A stretch of DNA of 64,000 nucleotides from Nitrosopumilus sp. (GCA_965224195.1 OZ245040.1:1696001-1760000); one strand, 5' to 3'. Positions 3,825 through 58,721 are shown, numbered from the stretch's first letter. Notes: a model not told the origin generated them from the letters alone. Program-made: numbers and translations.

Positions 3825-4736
3825 TTATGGAATTGCAATGAATTCTTCTTTCCATTTAATCTTGAAACTGACAGTCCCACAAACAATTTCACTTATCACA
3901 TCATATCTGCATAATTTGTTTCTAAACACATCGCGATTTATCCGAAATTGCCTGATTTGTGCAATGACATGTCCAACTTTTATTCTAATTTTTGACTGCA
4001 TCTTGTTCCACTCCTTTTGAGCAACAGTCAATTTTTTTCCTTTCTTTTTCTTGCATGGCAAAACACTTGCCTGTTCTGGAAAGTCTTTTTCCATCCCCAA
4101 ATATCCAGGATCATAAGACTGCAGCAACCCTTCAGATAATGTTGGATGCTTTGATTTGTAAATTCTGTAATCATGATGACTGCCAGGCGAATGTGCAGAT
4201 TTGTGGATTGTTATCCCATCAGGATTTATGGCGATTTGATTTTGTACTGCATGTTTTTTCTTTTTGCCTGAATGGTGTGTCCTTCTTTTCTTTTTGTTTT
4301 TTGGTCTTGGGATGGGCTGTTCTGTGCCATCAGTGATTGCAACTAATTCCGGAAAGAATTCTTGCAATTCCTGCATGCCGTTAATCTTTTTTGAGTCTGC
4401 ATATTTTTTGGCAGCAATTACAATGGACTGCCTCACTGCAGGCTCCAAACATCTGATGTTTCTCATTACGTTTGGTTTGTCCAAATCAAATGTCATCCCT
4501 GGCATGTCATATGTTGTGTACATTCTGTAGTACATGAAAAACATTAGAATTCTGCCTTTGAAGGACAAGTCAAACTTGTGTCCTGCACCAATGTCTCTTT
4601 CTCTATTTTTGGACAGTCCCTTTTGTTCTGCAGTTTTGCAATTGTTCTTTATTTCCTTGTATAGGGAATCAAATTGTGGAACAGTTAGTCCTGCTATTGG
4701 CAGGAATTGCTTTGGTTTTTTTGCCAGTTTGTGCAA
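3825..4736 (-). mobile_element. IS5-family transposase (HTH_Tnp_4 + DDE_Tnp_4), probably inactive
   Basis: ITDGTEQPIPRPK, SGKKKKH, DPGYLG; RIKVGHVI has G at the expected catalytic E. Confidence 0.85.
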
Positions 4737-4805
4737 TTAAACATGAATTGAAAATAATTCAGCCTTAGCTTTGGATCTTATGATTAGAAAATGTTGAGAT
4801 TATGC

Positions 4806-5015
4806 TCAAATTGGACTAATTGCACAACTCATCTCATCTAAATCAGGTTTTATTCTAGAATAAGGAATAACTCTTTGATCAATATCTAAAATCACTTCTT
4901 GAGATAATGTCGTATGATTTAATATTGCAATATTAGATGTTGCTTTCCATTCACTAAATCCAATTCTTTTCAATACATTTAACACTGTATTAACTACATA
5001 TTCTTCTCGATTCAA
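4806..5015 (-). CDS. HicA-like toxin, possibly degenerate
   Basis: VLNVLKRIGF fold pattern directly downstream of HicB; canonical His not evident. Confidence 0.45.
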   Translation of the reverse strand: MNREEYVVNTVLNVLKRIGFSEWKATSNIAILNHTTLSQEVILDIDQRVIPYSRIKPDLDEMSCAISPI

Positions 5016-5019
5016 AAAG

Positions 5020-5223
5020 TTATTTCACATCCACAGTGTCAACTGATTCTAATTGACTTTCTAGATCCGGATGTTTTTCCAAATACAATTTTATAGCTTC
5101 TGGAATCTTTCTTGTTGCTTCTTCTCTTGTTTTCCCAAAGACGCGTACAGGTTTCATCGATGGGCAATATGCCATGTATCCCGTACTTCCTTCTAACTGT
5201 TCAACTCGAAATGTAATCTGCAT
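5020..5223 (-). CDS. hicB: HicB-family antitoxin
   Basis: GYMAYCPSM..VRVFGKTREEATRKIPEAIKLYLE; ATG at 5223. Confidence 0.75.
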   Translation of the reverse strand: MQITFRVEQLEGSTGYMAYCPSMKPVRVFGKTREEATRKIPEAIKLYLEKHPDLESQLESVDTVDVK

Positions 5224-5271
5224 GATAGTATAATATATTATATAATTTAGACATATATGTATTTGAAAATA

Positions 5272-5402
5272 CGTGGCTTGGCAAATCAACATTGATTTTA
5301 CAAAATGGCTTGCATTGATCAAACTCTTTGAGCTTGGCACAAGTGCAAGACGTGCAGGAATTGAGATCGGCACTGGCTATCCTACCGTATTACTTGCATT
5401 TG
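5272..5402 (+). pseudogene. IS1595-family transposase N-terminal HTH fragment, cut at the transposon left end
   Basis: Translates NIDFTKWLALIKLFELGTSARRAGIEIGTGYPTVLLAF, resembling the IS1595 HTH region. Confidence 0.55.
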
Positions 5403-5474
5403 TACACTGGTCAAAACTAGGCGGATTTTCAACTAGTGGTCAATTCGGGTGATAAAGTGGTCAGTTAGGGTGAT
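5403..5474 (+). repeat. Left TIR of element A
   Basis: TACACTGGTCAAAACTAGGCGGATTTTCAACTAGTGGTCAATTCGGGTGATAAAGTGGTCAGTTAGGGTGAT; three TGGTCA sub-repeats. Confidence 0.95.
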
Positions 5475-5482
5475 AAACACTG

Positions 5483-7108
5483 TTAGGAATATAGATTAAT
5501 TCTTTCTTGAACATGTTTAGAATTTTTAATAAAATTGGTTTTCCATTTGTCATATTCTTTTTTATTTTTGAACCATTTTACATTATTTTGTTTTATATAT
5601 TTCATAAGATTTTCAGGATTACATAACTCAATATTGATTTTAGGTATAATTGAATAATCTTCTAATGGAAAAGATTTCCAGTATTTCAATGATTTCAGAA
5701 ATTTTTTACTAGAACTATATTCATTTTTAAGAGTTTTTTTGTCAAAAATTTCAATCACTTTATCTGATTTCTGTTGTATCAATGAAGAAAGTTCAAAGAT
5801 GGAATTAGAAATTAAAGATAGTTTTTCTTCTATAACTTGTAATATTCTTATATCTATACTGCCATTGACGAGTAAATTTACAACATGTATCTTATCTTTC
5901 TTTTGACCAATTCTATCAATTCTACCAATTCTTTGTTCTATACGCATTGGATTCCAATGTAAATCATAATTCATCACAGCACTACAAAATTGTACATCTA
6001 ATCCCTCAGAACCTACAAGAGTCATAATAAGAATAGATTTCTCTGAATCACGAAAACTGTTAATTACTTTATGTCGTTCTAAAAGAGGAGTTTCACCAGT
6101 CATAACAAAAATAGTCCATTTATCTGAAAATTCTTTTTCAATAGCTTTTGTAGTTTCGGAAAATTCACAAAATATTAACCATTTTTCAGATTTTATTGTT
6201 TCAATAATTTTACGAGCAGCCATGATTTTTGGATCTTTTTTTATCAAAATCTCTTTTAATCCTACAGATTTACTAAATGCACGAGAACTACTAGAAGCTA
6301 ATCGATAATAGGTGATTTTTTCAAAAAAGGAATCATTTTTTGTGGGAATTTTTGAAATGATCTTTTTAATTTTGTCCACATATTCTGTAGGATAAGAAAC
6401 TTCCATATTTTTTATTATTCTTTTTGCAAAATGTATTCCTAAATGCTCTTTGGTAAATCGTGTTACTAATGAATTTGTGATTAAGTATTTGTTTTTATCC
6501 CAAAGATCATCAATTAGAATAGATATGGCATCTCTACTATTATGTGGAAACAATATGCTTAATTCAGAAATAAAATCATCTATAGAATTGTTTATAGGAG
6601 TTGCACTTAACCCCACCCTATAATCTGCATGAAGTGAAATACTTCTTGCATTCTTATATCCAATTGTATCATCATTTCTAAAATTATGTATTTCATCAAA
6701 AATAACTACACTCACTTTTGTTTTTTTAGATAAAGTAATCTTATTCAAAATGGATGAAGGTAAAATATACACTAAAGGTATTTTTTTAAGTCTTTTAGTT
6801 TGAAGTTCATTCTCCATGGTGGCAAATTCTTCTACATTAGTAACAATAATACATTTAAGATTAAATTTTGAAATTATCTCTTCTTTCCATTTAACTAATA
6901 ATGATGGAGGGCAAATAACAATTCCTGATTGATTGAGTTTTGAAATTAAGAATAAAAGTATGTATCCAGCTGAGATTGTTTTACCTACACCAACACCATC
7001 ACTAATTAAAACTCCATTAAGATCATTATGAAGTAATTTCATTAATGGTACCAATTGATATGAAGATGGTTTAAGAAAAGACTCTGATTTCATACCACCA
7101 ATCCTCAT
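5483..7108 (-). CDS. SNF2/RapA-like SF2 helicase
   Basis: DGVGVGKT, DEIH, SATP, GSEGLDVQ, YDLHWNPMRIEQRIGRIDRIGQ. Confidence 0.9.
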   Translation of the reverse strand: MRIGGMKSESFLKPSSYQLVPLMKLLHNDLNGVLISDGVGVGKTISAGYILLFLISKLNQSGIVICPPSLLVKWKEEIISKFNLKCIIVTNVEEFATMENELQTKRLKKIPLVYILPSSILNKITLSKKTKVSVVIFDEIHNFRNDDTIGYKNARSISLHADYRVGLSATPINNSIDDFISELSILFPHNSRDAISILIDDLWDKNKYLITNSLVTRFTKEHLGIHFAKRIIKNMEVSYPTEYVDKIKKIISKIPTKNDSFFEKITYYRLASSSSRAFSKSVGLKEILIKKDPKIMAARKIIETIKSEKWLIFCEFSETTKAIEKEFSDKWTIFVMTGETPLLERHKVINSFRDSEKSILIMTLVGSEGLDVQFCSAVMNYDLHWNPMRIEQRIGRIDRIGQKKDKIHVVNLLVNGSIDIRILQVIEEKLSLISNSIFELSSLIQQKSDKVIEIFDKKTLKNEYSSSKKFLKSLKYWKSFPLEDYSIIPKINIELCNPENLMKYIKQNNVKWFKNKKEYDKWKTNFIKNSKHVQERINLYS

Positions 7109-7907
7109 TAGGAATAAGACCTGACTTTATTCTAAACTCTTTCATTCCAATTTTATGTTTGATAATCAAATCTGCAATAAAATCAGAATTATTACAAAAA
7201 ATGGTAGATTTTGAAGATTCTACTGCATCCATGGTTCGTTTAGTGTAACCATTTGTACTTATTACCATACCGTATTTTTTCTTGGTTGTTGTCAGAGCAC
7301 CAATAAAATCTCGAATATCGCTTGGACCCATTTTACCATTTAAATGCTTTAATTGACCTATTATTTCATACCATTTTCCAAATTCATCATGAGATATGGT
7401 TCCATCTCGATCTATGTAAAAAGATGCAGTAAAATCAATTCCCTCATCATCCGATACTTTTGGATTTAATCTAAAATTTTTAATCCATTTTAATTTTGGA
7501 TCACTTAGAACATTTTTTATTAAAATTACTGATTGAGGCTGTGTTAAATTTCTAATTTTTTCATTGACTTGTTCATGAAGAAATTCATTATATAATTTTG
7601 AGGCTAAATTAATTTCTGACCAAGTTGGAATTACCATTATTTCAAATTCTTCTCTAAATTGATGATATTGTATGGAAAACACCACATCATCCATTTCTTC
7701 ATTCTTCCAATCAGCCTTTATCAAAAATAGTTTTGACTGCAACTGTTTTTGCAGTTGAATTATTATTTCTTCATATTTTGAAATGGTGATGGTTCTACCT
7801 TTTTTGTTAAAATCTTCTATCGGAATTAATACTTTACGATTTTTATGTAATTGTGATTCTATATCTTCATCTGAAAGAATTTTTGAGATGAAAGTTTTGA
7901 GATTCAA
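7071..7907 (-). CDS. Mrr-like restriction endonuclease
   Basis: DEGIDF...GQLKH..MGPSDIRDFIGAL...GMVISTNGYT (Mrr_cat D-QxK pattern). Confidence 0.8.
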   Translation of the reverse strand: MNLKTFISKILSDEDIESQLHKNRKVLIPIEDFNKKGRTITISKYEEIIIQLQKQLQSKLFLIKADWKNEEMDDVVFSIQYHQFREEFEIMVIPTWSEINLASKLYNEFLHEQVNEKIRNLTQPQSVILIKNVLSDPKLKWIKNFRLNPKVSDDEGIDFTASFYIDRDGTISHDEFGKWYEIIGQLKHLNGKMGPSDIRDFIGALTTTKKKYGMVISTNGYTKRTMDAVESSKSTIFCNNSDFIADLIIKHKIGMKEFRIKSGLIPNEDWWYEIRVFS

Positions 7908-7908
7908 T

Positions 7909-8931
7909 TCATTTTGTAGATTCGATAATGGATTTAGATCCCAAATAAATTCGTTTAATCTGTTTCATGATTATGGATTCTTTTTTCAATTTTTCAAGTT
8001 CTACGCCATCTATATTGTTGATTCCTTTTGCAACATCACTTAATTTTTTAATCCAGGGCATTGAATCGTTAATGGATGTCCCACGATAATTATCTAGAGC
8101 CTCATCTACAGTCATTCGCTCATTTTTCAAGAATTTTTGTAAGATGATCTCATTTTGTGCAAATTTGTTGAAATCATACAAACCACCTTTTAAAGAAACA
8201 GAACGTATTCTTGTTTCCCCATCTTTATTCGGAGTAATCAATTTAAAAAATTTCTCTTTTTCTTTAGTTGTATTAAAAAATCTGTCTCTAACATATGCCC
8301 CTGCCCTTTGAAAATACAAATATTTTCGAGGATCTTCAATTCCTTGTATTTTTCTTTTTTTGATAAATTTAGTGAAATCTATATAATGTTTATAATTTTC
8401 TAACTCTTTGTTAATAGAAACTACAGAACTTCTCATCATTTTAGCTACTTCATCAGTAGAATATCTATCATTGTGGACAAGTTTGTAAATTGCTGAAGCT
8501 TCATTAAAAGGACCCCATGTTTTCTTACCTGTTTGTAATATGACTCGTTGTGCATCAATAACTCTTGGATCAGTATTTTTTGGATAAACCTGACATTTTA
8601 TTTTATCATATGAAATATTTTTTGCGGGTTTTACATTATCTCTTATCAAACCTCTGAGCACTACTAATCTTCTACTACCTTCAAGAACTTCAAATTTTCT
8701 ATTTTGCCCTTTTTCAAAAACCCATATTGGTTCTCTAATTCCAGACGCTTTGATAGATGGAAGAATATCTGAAATATCTTCCTCTTCAATAATTTCTTGA
8801 AGCATTTTGTCAGTCCATTTATTTTTACCTGTCTGAATTAGTTTTTCATGGTATCTTGGATTTTCCAAATCTAATAAAATATCTTTAATTGATACAATTT
8901 TTTCAAAATAGTCTTCAGAACTTTTAGACAT
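7909..8931 (-). CDS. ParB/Srx-N-domain protein, copy 1; likely start MSKSSED
   Basis: ILLDLENPRY, GIREPIWV, VLEGSRRL. Confidence 0.8.
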   Translation of the reverse strand: MSKSSEDYFEKIVSIKDILLDLENPRYHEKLIQTGKNKWTDKMLQEIIEEEDISDILPSIKASGIREPIWVFEKGQNRKFEVLEGSRRLVVLRGLIRDNVKPAKNISYDKIKCQVYPKNTDPRVIDAQRVILQTGKKTWGPFNEASAIYKLVHNDRYSTDEVAKMMRSSVVSINKELENYKHYIDFTKFIKKRKIQGIEDPRKYLYFQRAGAYVRDRFFNTTKEKEKFFKLITPNKDGETRIRSVSLKGGLYDFNKFAQNEIILQKFLKNERMTVDEALDNYRGTSINDSMPWIKKLSDVAKGINNIDGVELEKLKKESIIMKQIKRIYLGSKSIIESTK

Positions 8932-9233
8932 ACACTCACATCTTATTTTAACTATATAATACTCTCTTTTAAAAATTGTTTCATTACGCAATAATGGTAA
9001 ATTAAATTTAGAGTTTTTTACATTATTGACATTAAAATAAAGATTAATTCTGAAATTAACTGTGGATATGGATCGCAATATGGATCTACTTCAAATTCAA
9101 TTTTGAACAATTTTACCAATTAGTTATAATTATCAATAAAAATCTCATTTGATTAAAGAGTCAAGAGTGTTGTTGATTATAATAACAAGGCAACTTTTAA
9201 AAAAATTTAAAGGTATTACTTGTAACATCCATT

Positions 9234-10229
9234 ATGAAATCTACACTTCAAGAAATCCCTATAAATTCAATTCTATTAGATGTAAATAATCCACGATTAA
9301 GGTTTTCAAAAATTGAAAAAGGAATTAAAAATTGGACTGAAGATAGTATGATGCAAACTATTAAAAATTCAACCGTGTTTAACAGACTTTTGGATTCAAT
9401 ACAGGAATATGGTGTAATTGACCCCATATGGATTCATGATTTAGGTAATGATAAATTTCAAGTCATTGAAGGAAATATGAGGGTTGTAGTTTTACGAGTA
9501 ATAAATGAGAGAAAAATAAAATCTTCAACAGGAATAAACTACAATATTATACGATCTCATGTGATTTCACATAACACAAGTCAGACAGATTTAGAAGTTC
9601 AAAAAGCAATTTTACAAACAGGTAAGAATCCATGGGGTGCATTTAATGAAGCTGCACACATATACAATCTATTTTGGAAAAATAAAATTTCTATTAATGA
9701 AATTGCAAATATGTTAGGGAAATCTAGAAGTTATGTAGATAGTGAAATTGATAATTTTAAATTTTATCTAGAGTTTATTGATTTTGGTAAGAAGAAAGGG
9801 AGTTATGTTGTAGATCCAAATAAATATTCTTTTTTTAAAGATGCCCCAATAATAGTGAGACAGAAATTTTTTAAATTGTCTATATCTAGAAAAAACTATT
9901 TTGAACTCATAACTCCGAATAAAAATGGCATAACTAGAATACCCAATGTGTCATTAAAAGGAGGTCTTAGAACATTTGGAAAATTTGTCAATGATGAGAT
10001 CATCTTACAAAAATTTTTGAAAGATGAGCGGATGACTGTAGAGGACACATTCTTTGAATTTACTGAAAAAAATTATTTGAGTAAATTGCCTTGGATTAAA
10101 AAAATTTCCAGTATAACAAAAAACATGAACAAATTAAATAAATTTGAACGTAAAAAAATTTTAGAAAATATTGAATCTAAAAAAGCATTAATTGGATTAC
10201 TTAAAGAAATGAAGAAATTTTTTAATTAA
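9234..10229 (+). CDS. ParB/Srx-N-domain protein, copy 2; divergent paralog of copy 1
   Basis: ILLDVNNPRL, GVIDPIWI, IEGNMRV; shares LQTGKxxWGxFNEA, LITPNKxG and VSLKGGL with copy 1. Confidence 0.8.
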   Translation: MKSTLQEIPINSILLDVNNPRLRFSKIEKGIKNWTEDSMMQTIKNSTVFNRLLDSIQEYGVIDPIWIHDLGNDKFQVIEGNMRVVVLRVINERKIKSSTGINYNIIRSHVISHNTSQTDLEVQKAILQTGKNPWGAFNEAAHIYNLFWKNKISINEIANMLGKSRSYVDSEIDNFKFYLEFIDFGKKKGSYVVDPNKYSFFKDAPIIVRQKFFKLSISRKNYFELITPNKNGITRIPNVSLKGGLRTFGKFVNDEIILQKFLKDERMTVEDTFFEFTEKNYLSKLPWIKKISSITKNMNKLNKFERKKILENIESKKALIGLLKEMKKFFN

Positions 10230-10367
10230 ACCATATTCTAATTTTTTACGTAATTGCATATTCCTCATACTACATCTAAGATAAAATAAATTGTAAATTA
10301 TTCTTAAATATACAACTATTACTCAATCGTTTTAACAATAATTTAAAACATCTGCTGTGTTACAAAA

Positions 10368-11027
10368 TTACTTGTTATTTTTCATAACGATATCTAATCC
10401 CCACGAAGACCAACCTCTAACTTTTTTCCTTGCAAATAATTCAATACGTTTCTGATCTGGGAACATTTTCTCTATTCCTTCCATAACTTCTATTGGTTTT
10501 TCACTATGTTTCTTTCTTGGGCTTTTGATTAGTTGTTTGACATTTCTTGCACCTCTGGGGCTTGGTATTCTACCGTGCTTGAATAACAGACACAATTCAC
10601 AGTTTGATAAGGTGTATTGTCCAGGGTTATGATTCATTTTATCCCATACAAAAGCAACAGTTCTATACTCAAAACCCCACGCCTTACCTAGTTCCATAGC
10701 TTGGGATAGATGAGGATTAGTAGTCCACATAAATAACAAACAATCCTGTTTTGCTATTCTATTAATTGGGATCTCCATCATTTCATTTGTTTTTAATGTT
10801 GGATATTTGAAACCCGCAGTACTAACAAACAGATTTTTTGATGCATCATATTGTAATTTTCCATTGTAGTTCCATGGGGGATCTGCATAAATAATATCGA
10901 ATTTTTGACGTGGTAATTCTGGATAAAATCCCCCATTTGATTGTAGTTCGTAGTGTTTTGTTCGTCTTATTACATCATCTTTGTAGATTGAATATCCACT
11001 AGGTCTTTTAACTATCTGTTTGCTCAT
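10368..11027 (-). CDS. MT-A70-family adenine methyltransferase
   Basis: FDIIYADPPW, LFMWTT, AWGFEY, HSEKP, RIELFAR. Confidence 0.9.
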   Translation of the reverse strand: MSKQIVKRPSGYSIYKDDVIRRTKHYELQSNGGFYPELPRQKFDIIYADPPWNYNGKLQYDASKNLFVSTAGFKYPTLKTNEMMEIPINRIAKQDCLLFMWTTNPHLSQAMELGKAWGFEYRTVAFVWDKMNHNPGQYTLSNCELCLLFKHGRIPSPRGARNVKQLIKSPRKKHSEKPIEVMEGIEKMFPDQKRIELFARKKVRGWSSWGLDIVMKNNK

Positions 11028-11136
11028 TTTATTCCTCGCATGATGACTTCAATACAGTTATTCTTTTTTATTTTAAAAATTATTTTGTCAGAAATCCCAG
11101 GTTTTTCATTAATTGATTTTAACTTGGAGCGAATCA

Positions 11137-11415
11137 TTATTTTTTGATCTGTCTCTTTATTGCAATTTTGTATATTTCTTTTATATCTACTCCTGTTTCA
11201 GTATGCTTGTCTGATAATCTCTCTAATAATTCTCTTAATTTTTTATCTTGTTCATCATTTATCCTTTTTCTTACCTCATTTTGAGATTTTTTAAAATTTA
11301 GAACTGATTCTTTTATGTTAAAACGTTCTTTACAACTACTACATTGTATATCTTCTTTTTTGTTAGTAGTAAAAATATTTTCACAGTGTGGACAGGAAAC
11401 AGGTTCTTTACTCAT
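11137..11415 (-). CDS. Zinc-ribbon protein divergent from the transposase (possible regulator)
   Basis: CPHC...CSSC followed by a helical tail. Confidence 0.7.
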   Translation of the reverse strand: MSKEPVSCPHCENIFTTNKKEDIQCSSCKERFNIKESVLNFKKSQNEVRKRINDEQDKKLRELLERLSDKHTETGVDIKEIYKIAIKRQIKK

Positions 11416-11459
11416 GTTATATTATAACAGATAAATAGTATATATGTTATATTATAACA
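11414..11459. promoter_or_regulatory. Two identical palindromic operator-like sites between the divergent zinc-ribbon and transposase genes
   Basis: TGTTATA-T-TATAACA at 11415-11429 and 11445-11459. Confidence 0.6.
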
Positions 11460-11463
11460 AGAG

Positions 11464-12822
11464 TTGAGTATGATGGTGAAAGAAAGTAACAACAGAAAAC
11501 AAAAAGGAATTCAAATATTTTCAAAGACTAATTCAATAAAGAAAATCTCAAAGAACCATTTTATAGTAAAATCATCCACATCAGATAAAACATATCATGT
11601 AAGACGATTGCCTGACACCGAAATTTTTACTTGTGAATGTGCTGATTTTCATTACCGTTTAAGAAAACTAGATGATAAGAAATGCAAACATATCATTTCA
11701 TGTATGTTATTACAAGAAAGTATTCTATCACAAAGCTACATAGAGCAAACACAACAGTCTAAACTTTGTCCAAAATGTTATTCAACTACAATTATAAAAA
11801 ATGGTTTTAGAAAAATTAAGAACAATACCAAGAGACAGAAATACAAATGTAGAAAATGTACATACAGATTCATTTTAGGTGAGAATGGATTTTCTAATGT
11901 AACATCTGATCCTAAAATAATTTCAGAATCCTTGAATTTGGTAATGAATGGATTGTCATATCGCAATGTTGCAAGACACATCTATTCTACACATCAAGTA
12001 AAGATTAGCCATCCTACGATTGTGAATTGGGTAAAAAAATACACCAATCTGATTAAAGAATATGTTGAAACATTTAGTCCTAAATTATCTGATGTTTGGA
12101 GTTTGGATGAGATGGTTCTAAATGTTAAAAATACAAAGAAAACTGGAAAAGGATTTCATGATTGGCTATGGAGCATCATTGATCCTAAAACTAGATTTCT
12201 TATTGCTACAGAGGTTTCCAAGAAAAGAGAAATTGCAGATGCTAAAAAGATTATTTCAAGTGGCAAAAAACTAGTATCTAAAAATCCAAATTATATCTTG
12301 ACTGATTGTTTGAACTCTTACCAAGCTGCAATTAGAGAGGAATTTCAAAATAAAACTGCACATATCAAAACTAAATCACTCAAAGATGGGTTTGTGAACA
12401 GACCTATTGAGAGATATCACAATGAGATTAGAGAGAACTTAAAGGCAAGACGTGGATTGGGTAATGATAAATCTGCTCAGAATTTTGCTGAATTACATAA
12501 AATTCATCACAACTATGTCCGACCACATCAAGGATTAGATGGTAAGACACCAGCTCAAGCTGCAAATATTGATTTGAATCTAGGTGATGACAAGTATCTA
12601 GATCTGATTAAACATGCATCAAAAAAACCAAACTTTGTAAACAATCTAGGAAAGAGAATTGAAATGGTCACAATAATCAATGAAGGTGATTCAATCAAGG
12701 TTACCCCTACAGGATGGATTCAAAAGCACATATGGAGAGAGATTAATGATATTCTAAGATTACATGAGTTTAGCTGGTTGTCAAGTGGCAAAGATAGTTG
12801 CTGGATGAAATTAATTATTTAA
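11464..12822 (+). CDS. DDE transposase (SWIM Zn finger + Zn ribbon + HTH + IS6/rve-like DDE domain)
   Basis: CECAD..CKH, CPKC..CRKC, WSLDEM, LTDCLNSY, PIERYHNEIR, HNYVRPHQGLDGKTPA. Confidence 0.9.
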   Translation: MSMMVKESNNRKQKGIQIFSKTNSIKKISKNHFIVKSSTSDKTYHVRRLPDTEIFTCECADFHYRLRKLDDKKCKHIISCMLLQESILSQSYIEQTQQSKLCPKCYSTTIIKNGFRKIKNNTKRQKYKCRKCTYRFILGENGFSNVTSDPKIISESLNLVMNGLSYRNVARHIYSTHQVKISHPTIVNWVKKYTNLIKEYVETFSPKLSDVWSLDEMVLNVKNTKKTGKGFHDWLWSIIDPKTRFLIATEVSKKREIADAKKIISSGKKLVSKNPNYILTDCLNSYQAAIREEFQNKTAHIKTKSLKDGFVNRPIERYHNEIRENLKARRGLGNDKSAQNFAELHKIHHNYVRPHQGLDGKTPAQAANIDLNLGDDKYLDLIKHASKKPNFVNNLGKRIEMVTIINEGDSIKVTPTGWIQKHIWREINDILRLHEFSWLSSGKDSCWMKLII

Positions 12823-12843
12823 TTTTTTATTTCGATATATAGT

Positions 12844-12999
12844 ATGTTTAACATGGAAGTATCAGATCAAGAAATAGTCAAAAGGCTAAGAGAAACAATA
12901 GACTTTCTCAAAGTAGAATCCATTGGCGGTGTGTGGAATACGCCTCAACTAATTGAGATGCTGGAGGATTTATTCAAAGAAAATTCTAAAACTTCATAA
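12844..12999 (+). CDS. Conserved 51-aa transposon accessory protein (absent from ORF track)
   Basis: MFNMEVSDQEIVKRLRETIDFLKVESIGGVWNTPQLIEMLEDLFKENSKTS; homolog at 51710-51877. Confidence 0.75.
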   Translation: MFNMEVSDQEIVKRLRETIDFLKVESIGGVWNTPQLIEMLEDLFKENSKTS

Positions 13000-13063
13000 T
13001 TTTTCAGATTATTTAATGCTAACAATAATTGCTAGTTGAAATTACCTTCCCAATTAATTCATG

Positions 13064-13279
13064 TTATATTCTCTTTACAATCTGAATCATCTGTAACTGT
13101 CTTCTGTTTTTCGTGTTACGCGGCTTTGTTCTTAGTGTAAAATTACAACATGGACAGTGTTTACATTCCCAATACATAAAAATCTCACAGATTGAGCAGT
13201 GTTTTTGTCCCTGTATGTATCGGTTAATTCCGTGAACTCTTTTTGCTCTATGATTTTCACATGTTCCTTTGCATACCAT
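13064..13279 (-). CDS. Small Cys-rich zinc-finger protein of thaumarchaeal type
   Basis: CKGTC...RY..GQKHCSICEIF....CPCC..LRTKPR. Confidence 0.75.
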   Translation of the reverse strand: MVCKGTCENHRAKRVHGINRYIQGQKHCSICEIFMYWECKHCPCCNFTLRTKPRNTKNRRQLQMIQIVKRI

Positions 13280-13346
13280 GATGAAATTATGGCAATAAAT
13301 ACAATTTATGAATCTTAGAGAATTATTTTATCTTATCCATAATCAA

Positions 13347-13418
13347 ATCACCCTAACTGACCACTTTATCACCCGAATTGACCACTAGTTGAAAATCCGC
13401 CTAGTTTTGACCAGTGTA
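13347..13418 (-). repeat. Right TIR of element A
   Basis: Exact reverse complement of 5403-5474. Confidence 0.95.
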
Positions 13419-13687
13419 TTATGATATGTTACCACATCAAGAACAAAAAGCTTTGATGGCCATGAGACCTGGAAAAGCCCATACGTATATTGGCTACATC
13501 AACCAATGCATCTGTCTTGGCAAAAAATATAACATTAATGATCTTGCAAATACCAGTACCGCCAAGGTTTGTAAAAGATTATCAGATATACAGCGTCGTG
13601 TTTTTAGAGTATGACAATTAATTGTGTCAACTATGGCGTTGCAAGCGCCAATATTTGATACAATTTTATGAAAGGAGTAATAGTTTC

Positions 13688-13921
13688 TTACTGTTTAAAG
13701 AGATCATCAATTTTATTTATTACAGACTCTAGATCTTCCTGTCTAGAATCATTAGGCCATTTTTTTGTGTTGTTTCGATATGAGGAACGTACCTTTATTT
13801 TACCTTCATCCAGGTATAGAACAAACTCTAATTTTGTAATTATTTCAAGTTCTCTGTTACCATCTTTATAAACATCTCCCACATTACAGTCTAAGATAGT
13901 GTCTTTGGTTATTATTGTCAA
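13688..13921 (-). CDS. Hypothetical protein
   Basis: 77-aa ORF with typical composition. Confidence 0.5.
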   Translation of the reverse strand: MTIITKDTILDCNVGDVYKDGNRELEIITKLEFVLYLDEGKIKVRSSYRNNTKKWPNDSRQEDLESVINKIDDLFKQ

Positions 13922-13966
13922 TAAGTAAAATAATCTCCGTATTTATTTAAACATTAGAAAAAAAGA

Positions 13967-14468
13967 TTAGGTTAGTAATCTAACCGTAATCAGCATATTG
14001 AGTTTGGTTCCATCATCAATTGGGTGATTGAATTTTTTGAAATCGGAGTGTGTTTGAGGAACTTTAAAGTAATAGGTTTTGACAAAACTTTCCTTATCAT
14101 TACCTAACATTCTGTTGGTGTTAGGATCTAAGACAACCATATTGACATCCCAATTAGATTTAGTTGAGATATCTTTTGTCTTGGTTTGGATAACTGGTTT
14201 TATCCAATCTTTGTCACCATCTACAATTATTCCTATCACATCATCTGTTCCTTCAGAGATTGGTTGCCAGTGATTATTCATAGTTACACATGTACCCCAA
14301 CCGTTAACACAGTTGTGAGAGTTATCCTATTTGGAACCATAACTCTTTGATGTCATCATCATCACATCCCCACCAACAAGATGCAAATGCTTCTTGTGTT
14401 AATGGAGTTGTGACAAATGCAACAGCTGCAACCAATAGTAAAGGTATTGTTAGTTGTTTTGAAATCAT
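13967..14468 (-). pseudogene. Secreted protein, frameshifted with an in-frame stop
   Basis: Signal peptide MISKQLTIPLLLVAAVAFV from 14468; frameshift and TAG at ~14330-14350; continues DNSHNCVNGWGTCVTMNNHW. Confidence 0.6.
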
Positions 14469-17427: not shown

Positions 17428-17509
17428 TGCGGCAGGGGCTTTGTTTTTTTACATCCTCACAAGTTCAAAAAACTTGCAATGTGCCTCTGCTGCAAATCAA
17501 ACTTTAGAA

Positions 17510-20500
17510 CTATTTTTTCTTTATTATTTCAAAATAATAAACAATAGCAGCAAACACAGCGACAAAAAATATTATTGAAATTATTAGCAGATCACCAATA
17601 GATACTTTGAGCTCAACAGGCTCTGGCGTTGGTTCAGGTGTGTATACAGGTTCAGGCGTTGGTTCAGGTGTGTATACAGGTTCAGGCGTTGGTTCAGGTG
17701 TGTATACAGATTCAGGTGTTGGTTCAGGTGTGTATACAGGTTCAGGCGTTGGTTCAGGTGTGTATACAGGTTCAGGCGTTGGTTCAGGTGTGTATACAGA
17801 TTCAGGTGTTGGTTCAGGTGTGTATACAGGTTCAGGTGTTGGTTCAGGTGTTGGTTCAGGTGTTGGTTCAGGTGTTGGTTCAGGTGTTGGTTCAGGTGTG
17901 TATACAGGTTCAGGTGTTGGTTCAGGTGTTGGTTCAGGTGTGTATACAGGTTCTGGTGTTGGCTCTGGTATTGGTTCCGGTGTTGGCTCTGGTGCTCTGA
18001 CAGATGATGGCCTGTTGTCCCTGCCGACAATGTCTTTTAACAGTTCATCCAAATTCATATTATCATAATGTACTATGCCAGGCAGTTCCTTCAGTATGAT
18101 GTGGCCATCACAGTATGCCGCAGCAGATTCTACCTGTGCCTGTTTTTGTGATTTGTCGTAACTTTTTATCGACATTACATTTTCAGAAAGCATCTCTAAA
18201 CCCTCAAAGCTAAACGCATATAGAGAGATGGGTACGTGCACGGACTTGAGAAGATCCTTCATGCTGGCCTGGGATGTCACATCAATGCCAACATTGGATG
18301 GATGCCCGTCCAAGACAATGGAGGCGCCAAGGTTGTCCCCATATGTACCTGCAACTAGTACCACATCATTTTCCAGTCCGCACTGGTTGTACAGCAGCAG
18401 CATTGGACTCATTGTAAAACCTACAGAGCCGCTGCTGCCACCACGGTCAGCAGGCTGTGGTGTAGTAGGCTGTGGTGCGATGGGTTTTGGTGCGATAGGT
18501 TTTGGTGCGATAGGTTTTGGTGGCAAGACATCCTCTGGTATTTCTTTAGGAGTGCTGTCAATTACTGCGGTATCTAGTTCAACACTGACTGTATCTTCAA
18601 TGACAATAGGATCCCTTACGACAAGTACTAGGCTGTCATCCTTCTTCACCACATCTGCACCATCTGATGTTGGAATGTCATCAGCTAGTGACTTGGTGTG
18701 CTGCACTGCCGTGCCATCAGGTGTCAAGCTGGTATTCTTTGTTACATCCACGCCGTCTGATGTTGGAATATTGTCAGCCAGTGATTTGACATATTGTTTG
18801 GTTACAGAGATACCATCTGATGTTGGGATAGTATCAGATGGAGATATTGCATACAGTTTCACTACATCAACTGCGTCCTTTGATGGAACTGCATCAGCTG
18901 GAGATATGGCATACAGTTTCACTACATCCGCATTGTCCCTTGTTGGGATAGTATCAGATATGGATCTAGAGTACCGCTTTACCACATCCGCATCATCTGA
19001 TGTTTTGATAATATCAGCTAGAGATTTTACATATTGCTTGGTTACATCCACATCATCAGATGTTGGAATTGTATCAGATATGGATCTAGAGTACCGCTTT
19101 ACCACATCTGCATCATCTGATGTTGGAGCCTCATCAGATGGAGATATGGCATATAGTTTCACTACATCTGCACCATCTGATGTTGGAATATTGTCAGCTA
19201 GTGATTTGACATATTGCTTGGTTACAGAGATACCATCAGATGTTGGAGCTTCATCAGATGGAGATATGGCATATAGTTTCACTACATCTGCACCATCTGA
19301 TGTTGGAATATTGTCAGCTAGTGATTTGACATATTGTTTGGTTACAGAGATACCATCAGATGTTGGAATATTGTCAGCTAGTGATTTGACATATTGTTTG
19401 GTTACAGAGATATCATCGGATGTTGGGATGGTGTCAGATGGAGATATGGCATATAGTTTCACTACATCAACTGCGTCCTTTGATGGAACTGCATCAGATG
19501 GAGATATGGCATATAGTTTCACTACATCCGCATTGTCCCTTGTTGGGATAGTATCAGATATGGATCTAGAGTACCGCTTTACCACATCTGCACCATCTGA
19601 TGTTTTGATGTCATCAGATATGGATTTGACATATTGCTTGGTTACATCCACATCATCAGATGTTGAAATTGTATCAGATATAGATCTAGAGTACCGCTTT
19701 ACCACATCTGCATCATCTGATGTTGGAGCTTCATCAGATGTAGATATGGCATATAGTTTCACTACATCTGCATCATCTGATGTTGGGATGGTGTCAGCTG
19801 CTAAGCTGGCATACAGTTTCGCCACAACCACACCATCAGATGTTAGGATAGTGTCAGATGTAGATATTGCATATAGTTTCGCCACATCCGCATTGTCCCT
19901 TGTTGGGATAGTATCAGATATGGATTTGACATATTGTTTGGTTACAGAGATACCATCAGATGTTGGAGCTTCATCAGATGGAGATATGGCATATAGTTTC
20001 ACTACATCTGCACCATCTGATGTTGGAATATTGTCAGCCAGTGATTTGACATATTGTTTGGTTACAGAGATACCATCAGATGTTGGAGCTTCATCAGATG
20101 GAGATATGGCATACAGTTTCGCCACATCTGCATTGTCCCTTGTTGGGATAGTATCAGATGGAGATATTGCATACAGTTTCGCCACATCTGCATTGTCCCT
20201 TGTTGGGATAGTATCAGATGGAGATATTGCATGCAGTTTCGCCACATCTGCATTGTCCCTTGTTAGAACATCATCAAATGTAGATCTAGAGTACCGCTTT
20301 ACCACATCTGCATCATCTGATGTTGGGATGTTATCAGATGGAGATATTGCATACAGTTTCACTACATCTGCATTGTCCCTTGTTAGAACATCATCAAATG
20401 TAGATCTAAAGTACCACTTTACCACATCTGCATCATCTGATGTTGGGATAGTATCAGATGGAGATATTGCATACAGTTTCACTACATCCGCACCATCTGA

Positions 20501-22477
20501 TGTTGGGATAATATCAGCTAGAGACTTTGCATGCAGTTTCACTACGTCTGCACCATCTGATGTTTTGATAATATCAGCTAGAGACTTTGCATATTGTTTC
20601 ACTACGTCTGCACCATCTGATGTTGGGATGGTCTCATCAGCCAGGATAAATTGTCTCTTCACCACGATCATTATGCTAAAAAGACCATTGAACTGGCCGT
20701 CACCAGAACCTCTGCTGCCAAACTGAAACTTGTAGTTGTATGCAGAGTCAAAGACCTGGATGCGGTGGTTGCCGTTGTCTGCAACAAGTATGTCGCCGTC
20801 TGACTTTATTGCCATGCCCGTAGGACCATTGAACTGGCCGTCACCAGAACCTCTGCTGCCAAACTGGTCCTTGTATGTACCGTTGGGATCAAAGACCTGG
20901 ATGCGATCGTTTAAGGCATCTACGACAAGTATGTCGCCATTTGGTGCGATTGATATGTTACTTGGACCATTGAACTGGCCGTTGCCAGAACCTTTGCTGC
21001 CAAACTGTGATTTGTAGTTGTATGCAGAGTCAAATACCTGGATGCGGTGGTTCTTTCTGTCTGCAACAAGTATGTCGCCATTTGGTGCGATTGATATGTT
21101 AATAAGGCGATGGAGTTGGCCTGCAGAGCCGGAACTGCCAAACTGGGACTTGTAGTTGTATGCAGAGTCAAATACCTGGATGCGGTAGTTGTCGTTGTCT
21201 GCAACAAGTATGTCGCCATTTGGCGCTATTGCCATGCCACGAGGGTTGTCAAACTGGCCGTTGTCAGAACCGAAACTGCCAAACTGGAACTTGTATGTAC
21301 CATTAGAATGAAAGACCTGGATGCGGTGGTTGTCGTGATCTGCAACAAGTATGTCGCCATTTGGTGCGATTGCCATGCCCGTAGGACGGTTGAACTTGCC
21401 ATCGCCAGAACCCTTGCTGCCAAACTGGTCCTTGTATGTACCGCTGGGATCAAATATCTGGATGCGGTGGTTGTTGATGTCTGTAACAAATATGTCGCCA
21501 TCATATGTGATTGGCTTGAGATAGCCAGACTTGAAGACATGGATGCGGTGGTTGTCGTTGTCTGCAACAAGTATGTCGCCATTTGGCGCTATTGCCATTC
21601 CCATAGGGCGAAAATATTTGTCGTCAACAGTATTGGTAAACTGGGACTTGTAGTTGTATGCAGAGTCAAACACCTGGATGCGGTGGTTGTTTTTGTCTGC
21701 AACAAGTATGTCGCCATCAGGGTTGACTATTATGTTGTTGGGGTTACGGAGTTGGCCGTCACCAGAGCCGGAACTGCCAAACTGGGACTTGTAGTTGTAT
21801 GCAGAGTCAAAGACCTGGATGCGGTGGTTGTCGTGATCTGCAACAAGTATGTCGCCGTCAGACTTTATTGCCATGCCCGTAGGGCCATTGAACTGGCCGT
21901 TGCCAGAACCCTTGCTGCCAAACTGGGACTTGTAGTTGTATGCAGAGTCAAAGACCTGGATGCGGTGGTTGTCGTGATCTGCAACAAGTATGTCGCCACT
22001 TGGTGCAACTGCCATGCCACGAGGGTTGTCAAACTGGCCGTTGCCAGAACCTCTGCTGCCAAACTGGGACTTGTAGTTGTATGCAGAGTCAAAGACCTGG
22101 ATGCGGTGGTTGCCGCTGTCTGCAACAAGTATGTCGCCGTCAGACTTTATTGCCATGCCCGTAGGGCCATTGAACTGGCCGTTGCCAGAACCCTTGCTGC
22201 CAAACTGGGACTTGTAGTTGTATGCAGAGTCAAAGACCTGGATGCGGTGGTTGTTTCTGTCTACAACAAGTATGTCGCCACTTGGCGCTATTGCCATGTC
22301 ACGAGGGCTAGCCAACATGCCGGCAGCAGAACCGGAGCTGTCAAAAAATGACTTGTATGTATGCGGTTCAGGGGCAGTAGAGGACTGGGCCTGGGCAGCA
22401 GGGATAACAGCAGCAGTAGTAATGATGATTGAAAATAAGACTGCCATGCCAAAAAATACAAGTAGTTGCAATTTCAC
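17510..22477 (-). CDS. Large membrane-anchored surface protein: signal peptide, two NHL beta-propellers, ~31 x 20-aa repeats, PEPT stalk, C-terminal TM
   Basis: NHL units [23 protein letters not shown]; 60-bp DNA periodicity at ~18760-20640; PEPVYT repeats; TM followed by KKK. Confidence 0.9.
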
Positions 22478-26836: not shown

Positions 26837-29800
26837 TTTAAGACGCCCACCATGTAAGACAAGACTATCTTTAGCTGCTCTACTGAAATCTGATTTTTAT
26901 ATACCATCTCTCCAAGGTGTTTCTTTATCCATTTTGGCAATGATACGTCAGGTGGCAGGTCATTTGTAATGCCAAGTGACTTTATCAGCTCAGCATCAGT
27001 TGCAGAGAATTCAGAGTATCCTGCCCATCTCTTTATCATCTCATTTTGTTTTTTGATGGCATCAGTGCTCTGGGTGTCAGATGATGGTGGTAGCAGTTTA
27101 ATCATGTCATCATCTTGGGCGATGGCTGTCTTTGATGCATCAAGGCATGTTCCATCATGATTCATCACCTGCTCAGACAGACATGCAAAGGTTCCAGGTT
27201 CAGGGTCCATACATAAGCCAGTATCCAGCAACAACTTGCCTGCATCACATGATGATGTGATAGTGTCAGAAGAAGAAGAAGAAGAGGAACTGCCGCCTGA
27301 TGATGAAGAGGAACTGCCGCCTGATGATGAAGCAGTGTCAGAAGAAGATGAAGAACCTTGCGCATCATTCTGTGCTGTTACAGTCAGGGCATTATGAATG
27401 GTAAATGTCAGGGCATTTCGCCTGTCATCCCATGCATATATTTGAATGTCAGAGGTATCCATTGCTTTGCCAAAGGTTACAGAATAGTCCCATGTTGCAA
27501 CGCGTACATCAACTTTGGCAATACTGACAGACGCATTCTCAATTAGTCCGTTTGGATCAATTATTTTCAGGGAGTTGCTGTTATTATCATTGTTGCCATC
27601 ATTGTATTTTTTGTCCCAGACTAGTTTTGTGTCACTGTCACATATTTGGTTGTTTGATATTTGCTTGTTCAAACACAGCTCAACATGAGAGATGCTCTCC
27701 CATGACATGTTATCGTGCATTGTCAATGATATCGGGATTGATTGGCCTGTCTGTACTAGTACGGGGTTGTCTAGTGTATAATCTAATCGGGATGGCTCTG
27801 GAGATATTCCCACTGTTCCGATGAATATGGTGTGGGTTTTCCCATCAAAGGAGGTGGTGGGGAATGAAGGCGGAGTGGACTCGGTACTGCTGCTACTGCT
27901 ACCTCCTCCAGAACTACGGCCAGTTCCTGTAATGATAATGTGATTGTCCGGTGATGCATCTATTTGATTGCCTGAAACATCAGATACAGCTCCTTTCAGG
28001 ATGTCCAGTTGTGGGGTAGTCAGTGCAATGACTGATTCCCTTTGGGATGCAGTCAGCTCAATCTCTATGAAATTACTGTTGCCGACAGTTTCAATGCTGG
28101 CACCAGTCAGTGAAATCTCATTGGTATTTCCTGACTCACTGATGAATAATTTGGATAGATCAAGAGAGGAAGCCAATGCGTACTCGTGGATATCTCCACC
28201 AGTAGCACCTACAACAAACATCTTTGTTCCAGCTGGGTTAAATGCCACACCTGTTGGATTTGCATCCTGTAAAGATACTGAGAAAGTGTCTGCATGGGTG
28301 GGGGCAGATATGTCAAAGGGGGCAGACAGGGCGTACTCGTGGATGGCATCACCAGCATCACCTACAACAAACATCTTTGTTCCATCTGTGTTAAATGCTA
28401 CATCTGCCGGAGTTGTATCCTGGTCAGATACTGGGAAAGAGACATCTGCAAAGACGGAGGAGGATACGTCAAAGGGGACAGATAATGTATACTCGTAGAC
28501 ACGATCATTTTGAGCACCTATAACAAACATCTTTGTTCCATTTGTGCTAAATGCCATGCCTGTTGGACTAGCGTCCCGATCAGATACTGGGAAAGAGTCA
28601 TTTGCAAAGACGGAGGAGGATACGTCAAAGGGAGTAGTTAATGTGTACTCGTGGATCTCTCCACCAGTATTACCTACAACAAACATCTTTGTTCCATTTG
28701 TGTTAAATGCTACATCTGCCGGAGTTGCATCCTGTGCAGATACTAGGAAAGGATCATCATCTACAAAGGAGAGAGTAGATACGTCAAAGGGGTCAGACAG
28801 TGTGTACTCGTTGATATCCTTACCAGCAGCACCTATAACAAACATCTTTGTTCCATTTGTGCTAAATGCCATGCCTGTTGGACTAGTTTCCTGCGTACCT
28901 ACTGAGAAAGATCTGTCTGTATGGGCGGCAGTAGACAAGTCAAAGTCCCCGTTTGCTATTATCTCATCAAAAGTTACTGCCAAGACTCCGGTTCCCTCAT
29001 TTAGTGCGGCTGAATCAAATGTTGGCGGGGTATTGTCAGCAGATGGTGATACTGGCACAACAGGTACTACAGGCACTGGTGGTGCGACAGGCATATTAAG
29101 GATGACATGTGCAAAAGACTCTAAACTATCATAGTTTGCTACAGTAACAACTGCATATACAACTATGCGGTATGACTCACCTGATGTCAGGCCTGTTATC
29201 GTATGTAAGGTGTTAATCATATCACTGTCGTGTTCAGGTATACGATCACCGGTAGCAGGATTATAGACCTCCACGGTATATAATATATCATCAATAGTAT
29301 AGAATGGATTGGCAGGTATTGCAGGTGCAGTCCAAGTGATTTCAGCGGCTGTGCCGTTTATTATATTGACTGAAAGGTTAGTTGGCTTATTAAGTGACGG
29401 AGGTATCGGCATATCAAAGGATACAGCTGCGGTAGGTTGGGAGGACAGAACGGTTGAATCTGACGACAGGGCTTTTACCTCTACGGTTACCTCATAAGAT
29501 TCGCCAGGTGTCAGGCCTGTTGCCGTATGTGTGGTAGTGGTGCCGTCAGATATGGTATACGGTACGGTGGTGCCATCAGCAACATCAGTGACATTCACGA
29601 GATAGGATACGTCACTAATGTCATAGAATGAATTGGCAGGTATTGCAGGTGCAGTCCAAGTGATGGTAGCTGTGGTGCCAGATACATCCACTGAAAGGTT
29701 AGTTGGAGCAGCAAGTGGTGGTGGTACTGCTGCTACACTGTTAGTTACTGCAATTGCATTGTTTAGTGCTGCAAGAATTTGATTGCCTGAAACATCAGAT

Positions 29801-49382: not shown

Positions 49383-49572
49383 CACTAGAAAAAATTCAAT
49401 TAATTCCCAAATTATGTAAAATTTGTAATTTGTACAATATTACCCAGTTCAAATCTCAACAGATTTGAATTCTTGATTTTATCAAATTTTGAAAAGTATA
49501 GTACGAGAAGTTATTATGTATTATTATTTTGGGTTCTGTCAACTTGTTAGCACATAAGTCAAAATCTTTATA

Positions 49573-49681
49573 CTGTTCAATCTCAGGAGCTTTTCAACAG
49601 GGTGTTAATCTTCTTAGCCCGATGAAAGTACCCCTCATTTGTAAGCTGTTCAATCTCAGGAGCTTTTCAACAGGGTGTTAA
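49573..49681. repeat. 36-bp perfect direct repeat (49573-49608, 49646-49681) around a 37-bp unique insert inside the left TIR
   Basis: CTGTTCAATCTCAGGAGCTTTTCAACAGGGTGTTAA twice; insert TCTTCTTAGCCCGATGAAAGTACCCCTCATTTGTAAG. Confidence 0.95.
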
Positions 49682-49711
49682 ATTAGAGACTTTTGCTGTT
49701 AAGTTAGGTGC

Positions 49712-50416: not shown

Positions 50417-50422
50417 CTCTCT

Positions 50423-51577: not shown

Positions 51578-51591
51578 AATTTATCAAAATC

Positions 51592-51690: not shown

Positions 51691-51709
51691 TTTTATTCAA
51701 TGAATAGTC

Positions 51710-58420: not shown

Positions 58421-58422
58421 AT

Positions 58423-58700: not shown

Positions 58701-58721
58701 AAATTTTATACTCTAATGTAT

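Follow-up and report, generated by a model that had tools for sequence, protein, structure and literature searches.

The 64-kb window analysed here (64,000 nucleotides of one strand of Nitrosopumilus sp., GCA_965224195.1 OZ245040.1:1696001-1760000; coordinates without a locus label are positions in this whole stretch) contains two related transposons, in the following called elements A and B. We consider it likely that A is an intact and B a deleted member of a cargo-carrying, end-targeting clade of IS6-related DDE transposons. A more far-reaching statement, to which we give about an even chance, is that these elements are undescribed unit transposons of Nitrososphaeria that act as dedicated defence carriers, home to the 8 bp beside the tips of resident relatives, pile up and thereby build defence islands by themselves.

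Element A encloses 8016 bp within a perfect 72-nt inverted repeat. That is, its arms are complementary at 72/72 positions (100%) with 7872 nt between them. Both arms start, read inward, with TACACTGGTCAAAACTAGGCGGATTTTCAAC, and the full arm sequence is TACACTGGTCAAAACTAGGCGGATTTTCAACTAGTGGTCAATTCGGGTGATAAAGTGGTCAGTTAGGGTGAT. The element and its ends are located as follows:

5403-13418, element A
5403-5474, + strand, left terminal inverted repeat of A (72 nt)
5408-5420, 5437-5449 and 5458-5470, direct sites of the left end (TGGTCAAAACTAG / TGGTCAATTCGGG / TGGTCAGTTAGGG)
13347-13418, - strand, right terminal inverted repeat of A (72 nt)

Long inverted repeats also flank homologous transposases in other genomes. 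Given the 72/72 inverted match together with this like end architecture around homologues elsewhere, chance is excluded as its source. In total, we delimited 23 copies, of which A and B lie in the window and the other 21 in further genomes, with loci from unpublished genomes left out. The initial annotation's proposal of a unit-transposon family, in which long multi-site ends enclose a transposase and passenger genes, is borne out in these copies, whose sizes range from 2.4 to 11.6 kb; the exception is L128, a 1757-bp deletion derivative with truncated transposase. One copy, L103, was kept in the counts, yet it is doubtful since its two ends differ.

The ends of the 23 copies are 47-103 nt long and start with TAC(A/T)CTG(G/T)T, apart from some tips (L055, L056, L061, L122) that begin with GA, TG or CA. 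An internal CTGTT motif near the tip, which corresponds to the cTGTt of IS6, is kept in the family ends. In each end, a core like TGTTMAnTTAGGG occurs three times in direct orientation, with the sites placed at 6, at 35/44 and at 56/65 across 17 elements; in A and B, these are the three TG(G/T)T(C/A)A-type sites per end, accompanied by the spacer motif TTTTCAAC. The sites co-vary between elements, e.g., GGTCA is found three times in A and GTTAC three times in L056. The mean site identity within elements is 0.716 compared to 0.618+-0.016 for shuffled sites, a value reached by 0/5000 shuffles, where the shuffling ignores the relatedness of the elements. The three sites probably bind the transposase.

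Perfect 8-bp direct repeats are found just outside the tips in 10/23 copies, none of them in the window. By our own arithmetic, the chance of one such perfect match is about 3e-5 per copy at the given base composition. The duplications are:

L046, AAAAAGTG
L051, TTTGATAG
L053, CTAAACTG
L056, CAAAATAC
L057a, ACAAAATG
L060, TGATATCA
L061, GGCACGCG
L064, CTAGATTT
L101, CAAATCTT
L122, ATACTGGC

With regard to target choice, we observe a tail-to-tail IS6-like tip within 40 nt of 16/59 termini, and all 16 show an offset of exactly 8 bp; the 59 termini were drawn from loci chosen around these transposases and are not fully independent. The control rate of the tip motif at random positions is 4.3e-4 per offset. 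The abutting termini represent 11 junctions in 9 genomes, and the partner tips at these junctions are either of the long clade (i.e., that of transposase A, see below) or of GG type. In L053 and L057a, an element with its own 8-bp duplication lies between two ends that must formerly have been 8 bp apart. Four further termini (element B, two in L110 and one in L101) are located exactly 37 nt inside a GG-type end, which is between the tip site and an inner site of such an end. The duplicated 8-mers have no common sequence, and target choice is therefore attributed to the resident end itself. The exact 8-bp abutment is a new observation and would be a sharp genomic signature of end-directed target choice. 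According to the passages on targeting in Varani (2021, PMC7986276), insertion of IS26 is about 100-fold more frequent beside a resident copy of itself, active transposase is needed on both partners and the flanking 8 bp are exchanged; IS3 and IS30 members are reported there to target inverted repeats.

The strongest competing explanation is conservative cut-and-paste transposition, where the 8-bp abutment merely reflects that insertions beside other elements are tolerated and is not due to protein-directed targeting. Simple insertions with duplications are the expected product of such a mechanism, and no resolvase is encoded by the elements. However, selection cannot yield an exact 8-bp spacing in 16/16 cases. 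Furthermore, the 13/23 copies without duplication would fit flank exchange as known from IS26 or intramolecular events, for which no inversion or other signature was seen by eye when comparing L047 with L048 and A with a solo end at 58356. We regard cut-and-paste as improbable and favour a probably protein-mediated end-targeting with a presumably IS6-like copy-in/cointegrate chemistry, of which the many copies without duplication and the insertions beside resident ends are indirect signs.

Movement of whole units is evident from two comparisons. One genome holds L047 and L048 at two sites that differ in their flanks, and the two loci show 100% identity over 4973 bp. A 5882-bp type III restriction-modification (R-M) element found in L052/L125 agrees with L101 from another species at 99.93% over 5916 bp, and the remaining parts of these 21-kb loci do not match. 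Both observations bear on the possibility that ordinary insertion sequences (ISs) or solo ends came to lie beside restriction genes in a variable island, such that the intervening genes do not move along with the transposase. It is in line with this scenario that A, which lacks a target duplication, sits among many ISs and repeats, that solo ends exist (at 58356 and six more in the genome) and that L103 resembles a hybrid of two different ends. Still, it is very improbable, given that entire cargo-bearing units recur with near or full identity at unrelated sites, that the 8-bp duplications of the 10 copies flank whole 2.4-11.6-kb units and that no bare transposase-only form is among the 23 delimited copies.

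Some Tc1-like elements have long inverted repeat/direct repeat ends with internal repeats, which the family ends recall. Nevertheless, the TA targeting considered in the initial annotation, and with it a cut-and-paste family of IS630/Tc1-mariner or other non-IS6 kind in which the leading TA of the ends would arise by target duplication and the actual tip would be CACTG, can be dismissed as extremely unlikely, since four elements begin with GA, TG or CA, the 8-bp duplications of 10/23 copies sit immediately outside the TA, which hence belongs to the element, and the best NCBIfam profiles of the transposase are IS6 and IS1 with no IS630 match listed. The empty sites by which the annotation had wanted to decide this question were not found (see below); it is the 8-bp duplications that argue against TA targeting.

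The assignment as IS6-related derives from the transposase of A (452 aa). It is composed of a SWIM-like CxCx14CxH motif (C57/C59/C74/H76), a Zn ribbon (C102/C105/C129/C132), a helix-turn-helix (HTH), a DDE core (D215/D281/E316 with R323) and a C-terminal extension (about residues 390-452). Invariant in 81 aligned homologues are C57, C59, C74, H76, C102, C105, C129, C132, D215/E216, D281, E316 and R323. The Pfam model DDE_Tnp_IS240 (IS6 type) matches with 2.8e-14 and 53.9 bits, which is above its cut-off of 27. Within NCBIfam, transpos_IS6 provides the best score with 113.9 bits at a cut-off of 125, followed by IS1 with 74.4 bits (cut-off 100), and the IS1/IS1595 Zn-binding domain NF050000 is matched with 1.2e-05. 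CxCxnCxH is the signature of the SWIM zinc finger. The Pfam model SWIM (PF04434) reaches 13.1 bits (cut-off 19.6) in 1/3 isolated N-termini, such that the label 'SWIM-like' rests on the residue pattern. An AlphaFold2 model of the protein (predicted local distance difference test, pLDDT, 81.0; predicted template modelling score, pTM, 0.60) has its best fold matches in the ISCth4 transposase (E 1.6e-09), retroviral integrases, TnsB and Mu transposase. A PDB sequence search with the 81-sequence profile gave no match at E<=0.01. Among public proteins, 261 match at E<=1e-20; they bear generic names like 'DDE-type integrase/transposase/recombinase', 'IS1/IS6 family transposase' (given to one homologue by the NCBI pipeline) or 'transposase-like protein/predicted nucleic acid-binding Zn finger protein'.

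Between the arms of A, nine open reading frames (ORFs) are found:

5483-7108, - strand, cargo: SNF2-type helicase, 541 aa (Pfam Helicase_C 4.5e-22, SNF2-rel_dom 8e-19; PADLOC DrmD 2.4e-52, partial)
7071-7907, - strand, cargo: protein of 278 aa with an Mrr-type restriction endonuclease domain (Pfam Mrr_cat 5.2e-08; PADLOC mREase_IV 2.7e-08)
7909-9078, - strand, cargo: ParB-N-like protein 1, 389 aa (weak Pfam ParB_N; PADLOC PD-Lambda-5_A 2.4e-08; TIGR00180 2.4e-07)
9234-10229, + strand, cargo: ParB-N-like protein 2, 331 aa (paralogue of ParB-N-like protein 1 with 42% identity; inverted repeat in the window)
10368-11027, - strand, cargo: MT-A70 family DNA methyltransferase, 219 aa (Pfam MT-A70 2.9e-24; PADLOC MTase_II 1.2e-62)
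11137-11415, - strand, small Zn-ribbon protein, 92 aa, putative regulator divergent from the transposase gene (Zn-ribbon matches below threshold)
11464-12822, + strand, transposase A, 452 aa (Pfam, NCBIfam, alignment, AlphaFold2 model)
12844-12999, + strand, small conserved acidic ORF, 51 aa, 3' of the transposase gene (aligns with ORFs of B, L052, L057a and L103)
13064-13279, - strand, 71-aa ORF (no family match; conservation not seen in the all-against-all element comparison)

The stop codon of the SNF2 gene (5483) is 8 nt away from the inner edge of the left end, and the helicase is DrmD/BrxH-like by partial matches only. Compared against PADLOC, the cargo of A yields partial or single-component matches (DrmD-like, mREase_IV, PD-Lambda-5_A-like, MTase_II) and no complete named defence system. 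The five cargo genes recur together, with 69-84% amino acid identity and a differently placed methylase, in another genome (L152, G122:C1:576000-595900, there at 8300-14350), where neither transposase nor end is present within 19.9 kb. We thus consider them a self-standing module that was acquired by element A. Using a ParB-like query, the module is found in 3/301 genomes. Its composition (two ParB-N-like proteins, Mrr-like, SNF2, MT-A70) makes it a candidate for an uncharacterised restriction-like defence system.

The initial annotation had taken restriction genes to be the passengers of both elements and defence genes to be the cargo of the family. With regard to the family, this holds for most members: defence-related cargo is carried by 15/21 element types (A and B counted). 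R-M genes or their remnants account for 14/21 and comprise types II, III, ISP and IIG/I-like; one more type has Shosta, and one of the 14 adds a TIR-domain protein. The cargo of the other elements is:

L046, type II: MvaI/BcnI endonuclease and N6_N4 methylase
L051, type II: HaeIII endonuclease and D12 methylase
L064, type II, decayed
L045, methylase and 232-aa protein without functional assignment
L050 and L052, type III Res and Mod
L053, type ISP and PLD-SNF2 protein
L055, L057a and L057b, large N6 methylase and S subunit
L047, large N6 methylase and S subunit, fragmented
L123, split methylase
L122 (2055-9184 of a Nitrososphaera sp. record), Shosta: DprA-like ShosA (5.1e-52) with its ShosT/PsyrT-like phosphoribosyltransferase (PRTase) partner, and three proteins without functional assignment
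L057b (L057 10059-17715), additionally a TIR-domain protein (CAP12/Pycsar-type TIR, 5e-18) and a TATA-binding protein (TBP; Pfam 2.2e-31) beside methylase and S subunit
L056 (host Ca. Nitrosotalea okcheonensis), L060, L061 and L096b, four element types with proteins without functional assignment
L103, HYR/fn3 protein and nested IS, not defence
L128, deleted to a transposase fragment

The cargo may be active in defence. Besides small putative regulators, the transposase is the only gene common to all elements. The all-against-all protein comparison revealed no ATPase or resolvase shared by the elements, and the helicases that are present belong to the cargo of single elements; the absence of an ATPase claimed in the initial annotation is therewith confirmed. 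Several 'conserved small ORFs' from the same comparison were dropped as antisense frames inside the transposase gene. An acidic ORF of 51-55 aa lies 3' of the transposase gene in A, B, L052, L057a and L103. It is replaced in L045 (4625-4990) and L051 (14855-15223) by a GIY-YIG nuclease of 121-122 aa between transposase and right end. Upstream of the transposase gene, 16 elements have a small divergent ORF, by eye 9 Zn-ribbon, 4 AbrB-like and 3 ribbon-helix-helix-like (RHH) proteins, which are putative regulators.

Element B has ends related to those of A and shares its layout, as had been annotated: left end, an inward-facing gene that abuts the end, transposase, a small ORF (51 aa in A, 55 aa in B) and right end. 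Its parts are:

about 49569/49642-51975, element B
49532-49568, + strand, initial 37 nt of a GG-tipped IS6-type end (GGTTCTGTCAAC...) that is interrupted here by the inserted end of B
49569-49608, + strand, 40-nt tip fragment (TATACTGTTCAATC..., tip TATACTG), a direct duplicate of the start of the left end of B
49642-49713, + strand, left inverted repeat of B with three sites, tip TAAGCTG
49712-50416, - strand, type III restriction subunit (Res) remnant, 234 aa (blastp cluster with the 725-aa / 731-aa ResIII proteins of L050 / L052)
50279-51577, + strand, transposase B, N-terminal SWIM region lost (tblastn homology to residues 65-450 of A only)
51710-51877, + strand, conserved small ORF, 55 aa
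51904-51975, - strand, right inverted repeat of B

In other respects, B differs from its initial description. The arms of B (49646-49713 / 51904-51971) match over 68 nt at 96%, the right tip being at 51975, and its left side is more complex than annotated and doubled, i.e., the 40-nt tip fragment is followed by a gap of 33-37 nt and the full three-site end. Likewise, the SWIM/Zn-ribbon/HTH/DDE order assigned to both transposases applies to A (SWIM as a pattern) and is incomplete in B. Restriction-like cargo is present as a five-gene module in A and reduced to the 234-aa ORF, the C-terminal part of a type III Res, in B. B has no target duplication. Two blocks of B match separated parts of an L052-type element, namely 49646-50443 its positions 5-802 (91% nucleotide identity) and 50453-51975 its positions 4357-5882 (82.7%). 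B thus corresponds to an internal deletion of about 3.5 kb and carries no working system. By this alignment, mod and the small regulator are gone entirely, res is lost for the most part and the transposase gene lacks its first 60-odd codons.

Several points weigh against our overall reading, in addition to the dependence among termini and among elements stated above. No duplication is found for A, whose flanks are TGCATTTG and TTATGATA, and for 12 further copies (13/23). Searching the flanks of A in 61 genomes of the genus, of which the left is multi-copy and the right unique, revealed no empty site; none was found for L051, whose left flank was searched in 21 relatives and where the fetched loci do not have the right flank beside the homologue of the left one, nor for L046, where the left flank has only short matches in 21 relatives and the right flank was not searched. 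That A moves as a whole unit would hence follow from its perfect ends and from analogy. Within the genome of the window, only one convincing GG/GG case of abutted tips was found, with no independent confirmation. Finally, the NCBIfam IS6 and Pfam SWIM scores remain below their cut-offs, four element types carry only proteins without functional assignment and L103, with its non-defence cargo, has unequal ends.

The left flank of A is formed by a multi-copy IS (3825-4736, - strand, DDE_Tnp_4/HTH_Tnp_4 transposase of 303 aa), of which the same genome contains a stretch of about 632 bp (4203-4835) as 7 copies with 95-98% identity, and several relatives have it as well; the right flank is unique to this genome. 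Isolated ends occur as well:

58356-58420, + strand, solo degenerate A-type end (85% to the repeat of A)

Immediately after it (58421-58740), a frame resembles by eye the C-terminal part of an IS1595-type transposase (...VDHSK...INGIEGF); the nearby ORF 58523-58738 has no Pfam match at 1e-05. Six more solo A-like 72-nt ends are located at G000:C1:288454, 798600, 1018035 and 1161279 (+) as well as 1505191 and 1551683 (-). They were rejected as independent insertions since all have a common outside flank, the 3' end of a multi-copy gene for a 613-aa fn3-domain protein, and they have thus been copied inside a larger repeat. A truncated family member (end and transposase C-terminus) is found in the same genome at C1:1632438-1633136. 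Direct duplications of ends tens of bases apart were observed in the window (49569-49713), in L105 (1673-1824) and in L097 (11551-11853); such doubled ends may be scars of aborted or one-ended events.

In the 2.07-Mb genome of the window, we obtained 23 tblastn matches to the transposase, many of them with stops. At E<=1e-40, a match is present in 85/301 genomes of the family, a tally in which seven unpublished genomes are counted. Two clades can be told apart among these matches. The long clade shows 43-88% identity and covers residues 1-451; by reading of the listing, it is found in about 24 genomes, three of them unpublished. A larger sister clade shows 32-38% identity, has proteins of about 380 aa with the same SWIM-like, Zn ribbon, HTH and DDE layout and is without the last 60 or so residues. 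Its copies in the genome of the window terminate in GG-tipped repeats of 23-54 nt (GGTTCTGT...) and are flanked by 8-bp duplications (e.g., GATTGATA, AATAATTA). One of them (L142, G000:C1:786717-789463) carries a MunI-type endonuclease and an MT-A70 methyltransferase within perfect 54-nt ends, such that cargo is also carried outside the long clade. When one genome was scanned for each prokaryote species, 46 loci were obtained, the records of which are named Nitrosopumilus, Nitrosopumilaceae, Cenarchaeum, Nitrosotalea, Nitrososphaera, Thaumarchaeota or 'archaeon'. The clade was found only in Nitrososphaeria, save one 3.3-kb contig binned as Dehalococcoidia (L106). On this sole non-archaeal record, a typical end accompanies a transposase of the long clade with 74% identity, and mis-binning is likely given the shortness of the contig.

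Taken together, we propose the following mechanism. A single transposase of about 450 aa would recognise the three direct sites of about 13 nt in each 47-103-nt end and link these ends to target DNA cut with an 8-bp stagger. The entire stretch in between would move as one unit, which would turn the element into a vehicle for R-M and other defence genes, while the small divergently encoded DNA-binding protein probably regulates transposase or cargo. Insertion would often be directed to the 8 bp abutting a resident IS6-like tip or to the fixed spot 37 nt inside a GG-type end. Here, transposase bound at the resident end may capture the incoming complex, whereby elements would stack into arrays.

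Ammonia-oxidising archaea have a major part in the nitrogen cycle, and knowledge of their gene exchange is scarce. The elements would provide a concrete vehicle for it, i.e., one transposase that moves complete R-M systems and further defence genes such as Shosta, both inside a species and from one species to another. If true, self-stacking would give a transposon-driven route to archaeal defence islands and defence-gene exchange. The range of IS6-like transposases would be widened to long three-site ends and kilobases of cargo with no helper ATPase, and the exact 8-bp abutment could help to explain the targeted pathway of the clinically important IS26. Furthermore, a compact system that consists of one protein and defined 72-nt ends may serve as a genetic tool for archaea that are currently without one.

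Apart from the transposons, the window contains very long in-frame tandem repeats (17500-22330 and 28100-35660; periods of 30, 60, 141, 153 and 204 nt) in dozens of copies with 60-95% identity, which probably encode giant repetitive surface proteins.

A description of the family was not found in the literature searched, where ISfinder and TnCentral lie outside the comparison and the per-genome IS tables of Krupovic et al. (2019), which cover the L056 host Ca. Nitrosotalea okcheonensis, may list some copies as ISs. That paper describes thaumarchaeal IS-like transposons with 1-2 genes and, in its Discussion, passenger-gene transposons as not detected in archaea. In the parts of the IS6 reviews used here (Varani et al. 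2021, PMC7986276; Harmer & Hall 2019, PMC6807381), IS6 elements are about 0.8 kb long with ends of 14-20 nt and GG tips, ISDsp3 is the single passenger-gene member, Zn-finger extensions occur only in clostridial clades and thaumarchaeal members are not mentioned. From this description, the clade departs in three respects, namely end length and tip, size, and cargo.

The likeness to IS6/IS26 nevertheless concerns the core of the system: a DDE core in which a basic residue follows the E at a distance of 7 positions, an HTH ahead of this core, the 8-bp target duplication, the cTGTt motif near the tip and the insertion preference beside a resident copy. Zn-finger N-terminal extensions are, in the review passages cited above, also borne by the clostridial clades h and i of IS6/IS26 (340-450 aa). 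In contrast, the ends of the family are 47-103 nt long with three sites and TA/GA/TG/CA tips, its 2.4-11.6-kb units hold several passenger genes inside the ends instead of the 0.7-0.9 kb and single transposase ORF typical of IS6, and its transposase has an extra C-terminal domain and an NCBIfam IS6 score below cut-off. While targeted insertion of IS26 results in one shared IS copy, that of the family leaves an 8-bp spacer and a duplication and involves heterologous partner ends. The GG-tipped sister clade agrees in domain layout, 8-bp duplications, longer than canonical ends and occasional cargo; it differs by its 32-38% identity, the missing C-terminal extension (about 380 aa) and its GG tips.

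Defence systems are known to be carried by Tn7-like elements (Benler et al. 2021, PMC8649781). Like Tn7, Mu and Tn5053, the family has several predicted transposase sites per end, defence-rich cargo and a core fold similar to TnsB and Mu; unlike these, it has no gene for an AAA+ regulator (TnsC/MuB/TniB) or target selector, and its ends are symmetric, its duplication is 8 bp instead of 5 bp and its hosts are archaea. In the Tn3 family, the transposase is large and unrelated, the ends measure 38 nt, the duplication has 5 bp and there is a resolvase with res site. None of these was seen here, while inverted ends that enclose transposase and passengers, and presumed replicative movement, are common to both. 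With IS1, the family shares the N-terminal Zn ribbon of IS1/IS1595 type, but the IS1 profile scores below cut-off and the transposase is not a frameshifted two-ORF gene. The family is thus distinct, as initially annotated, with regard to long ends, size and cargo, and not so with regard to its IS6-like transposase core, tip motif and 8-bp duplication. From its sequence features, it would best be described as a divergent, cargo-carrying IS6-like clade.

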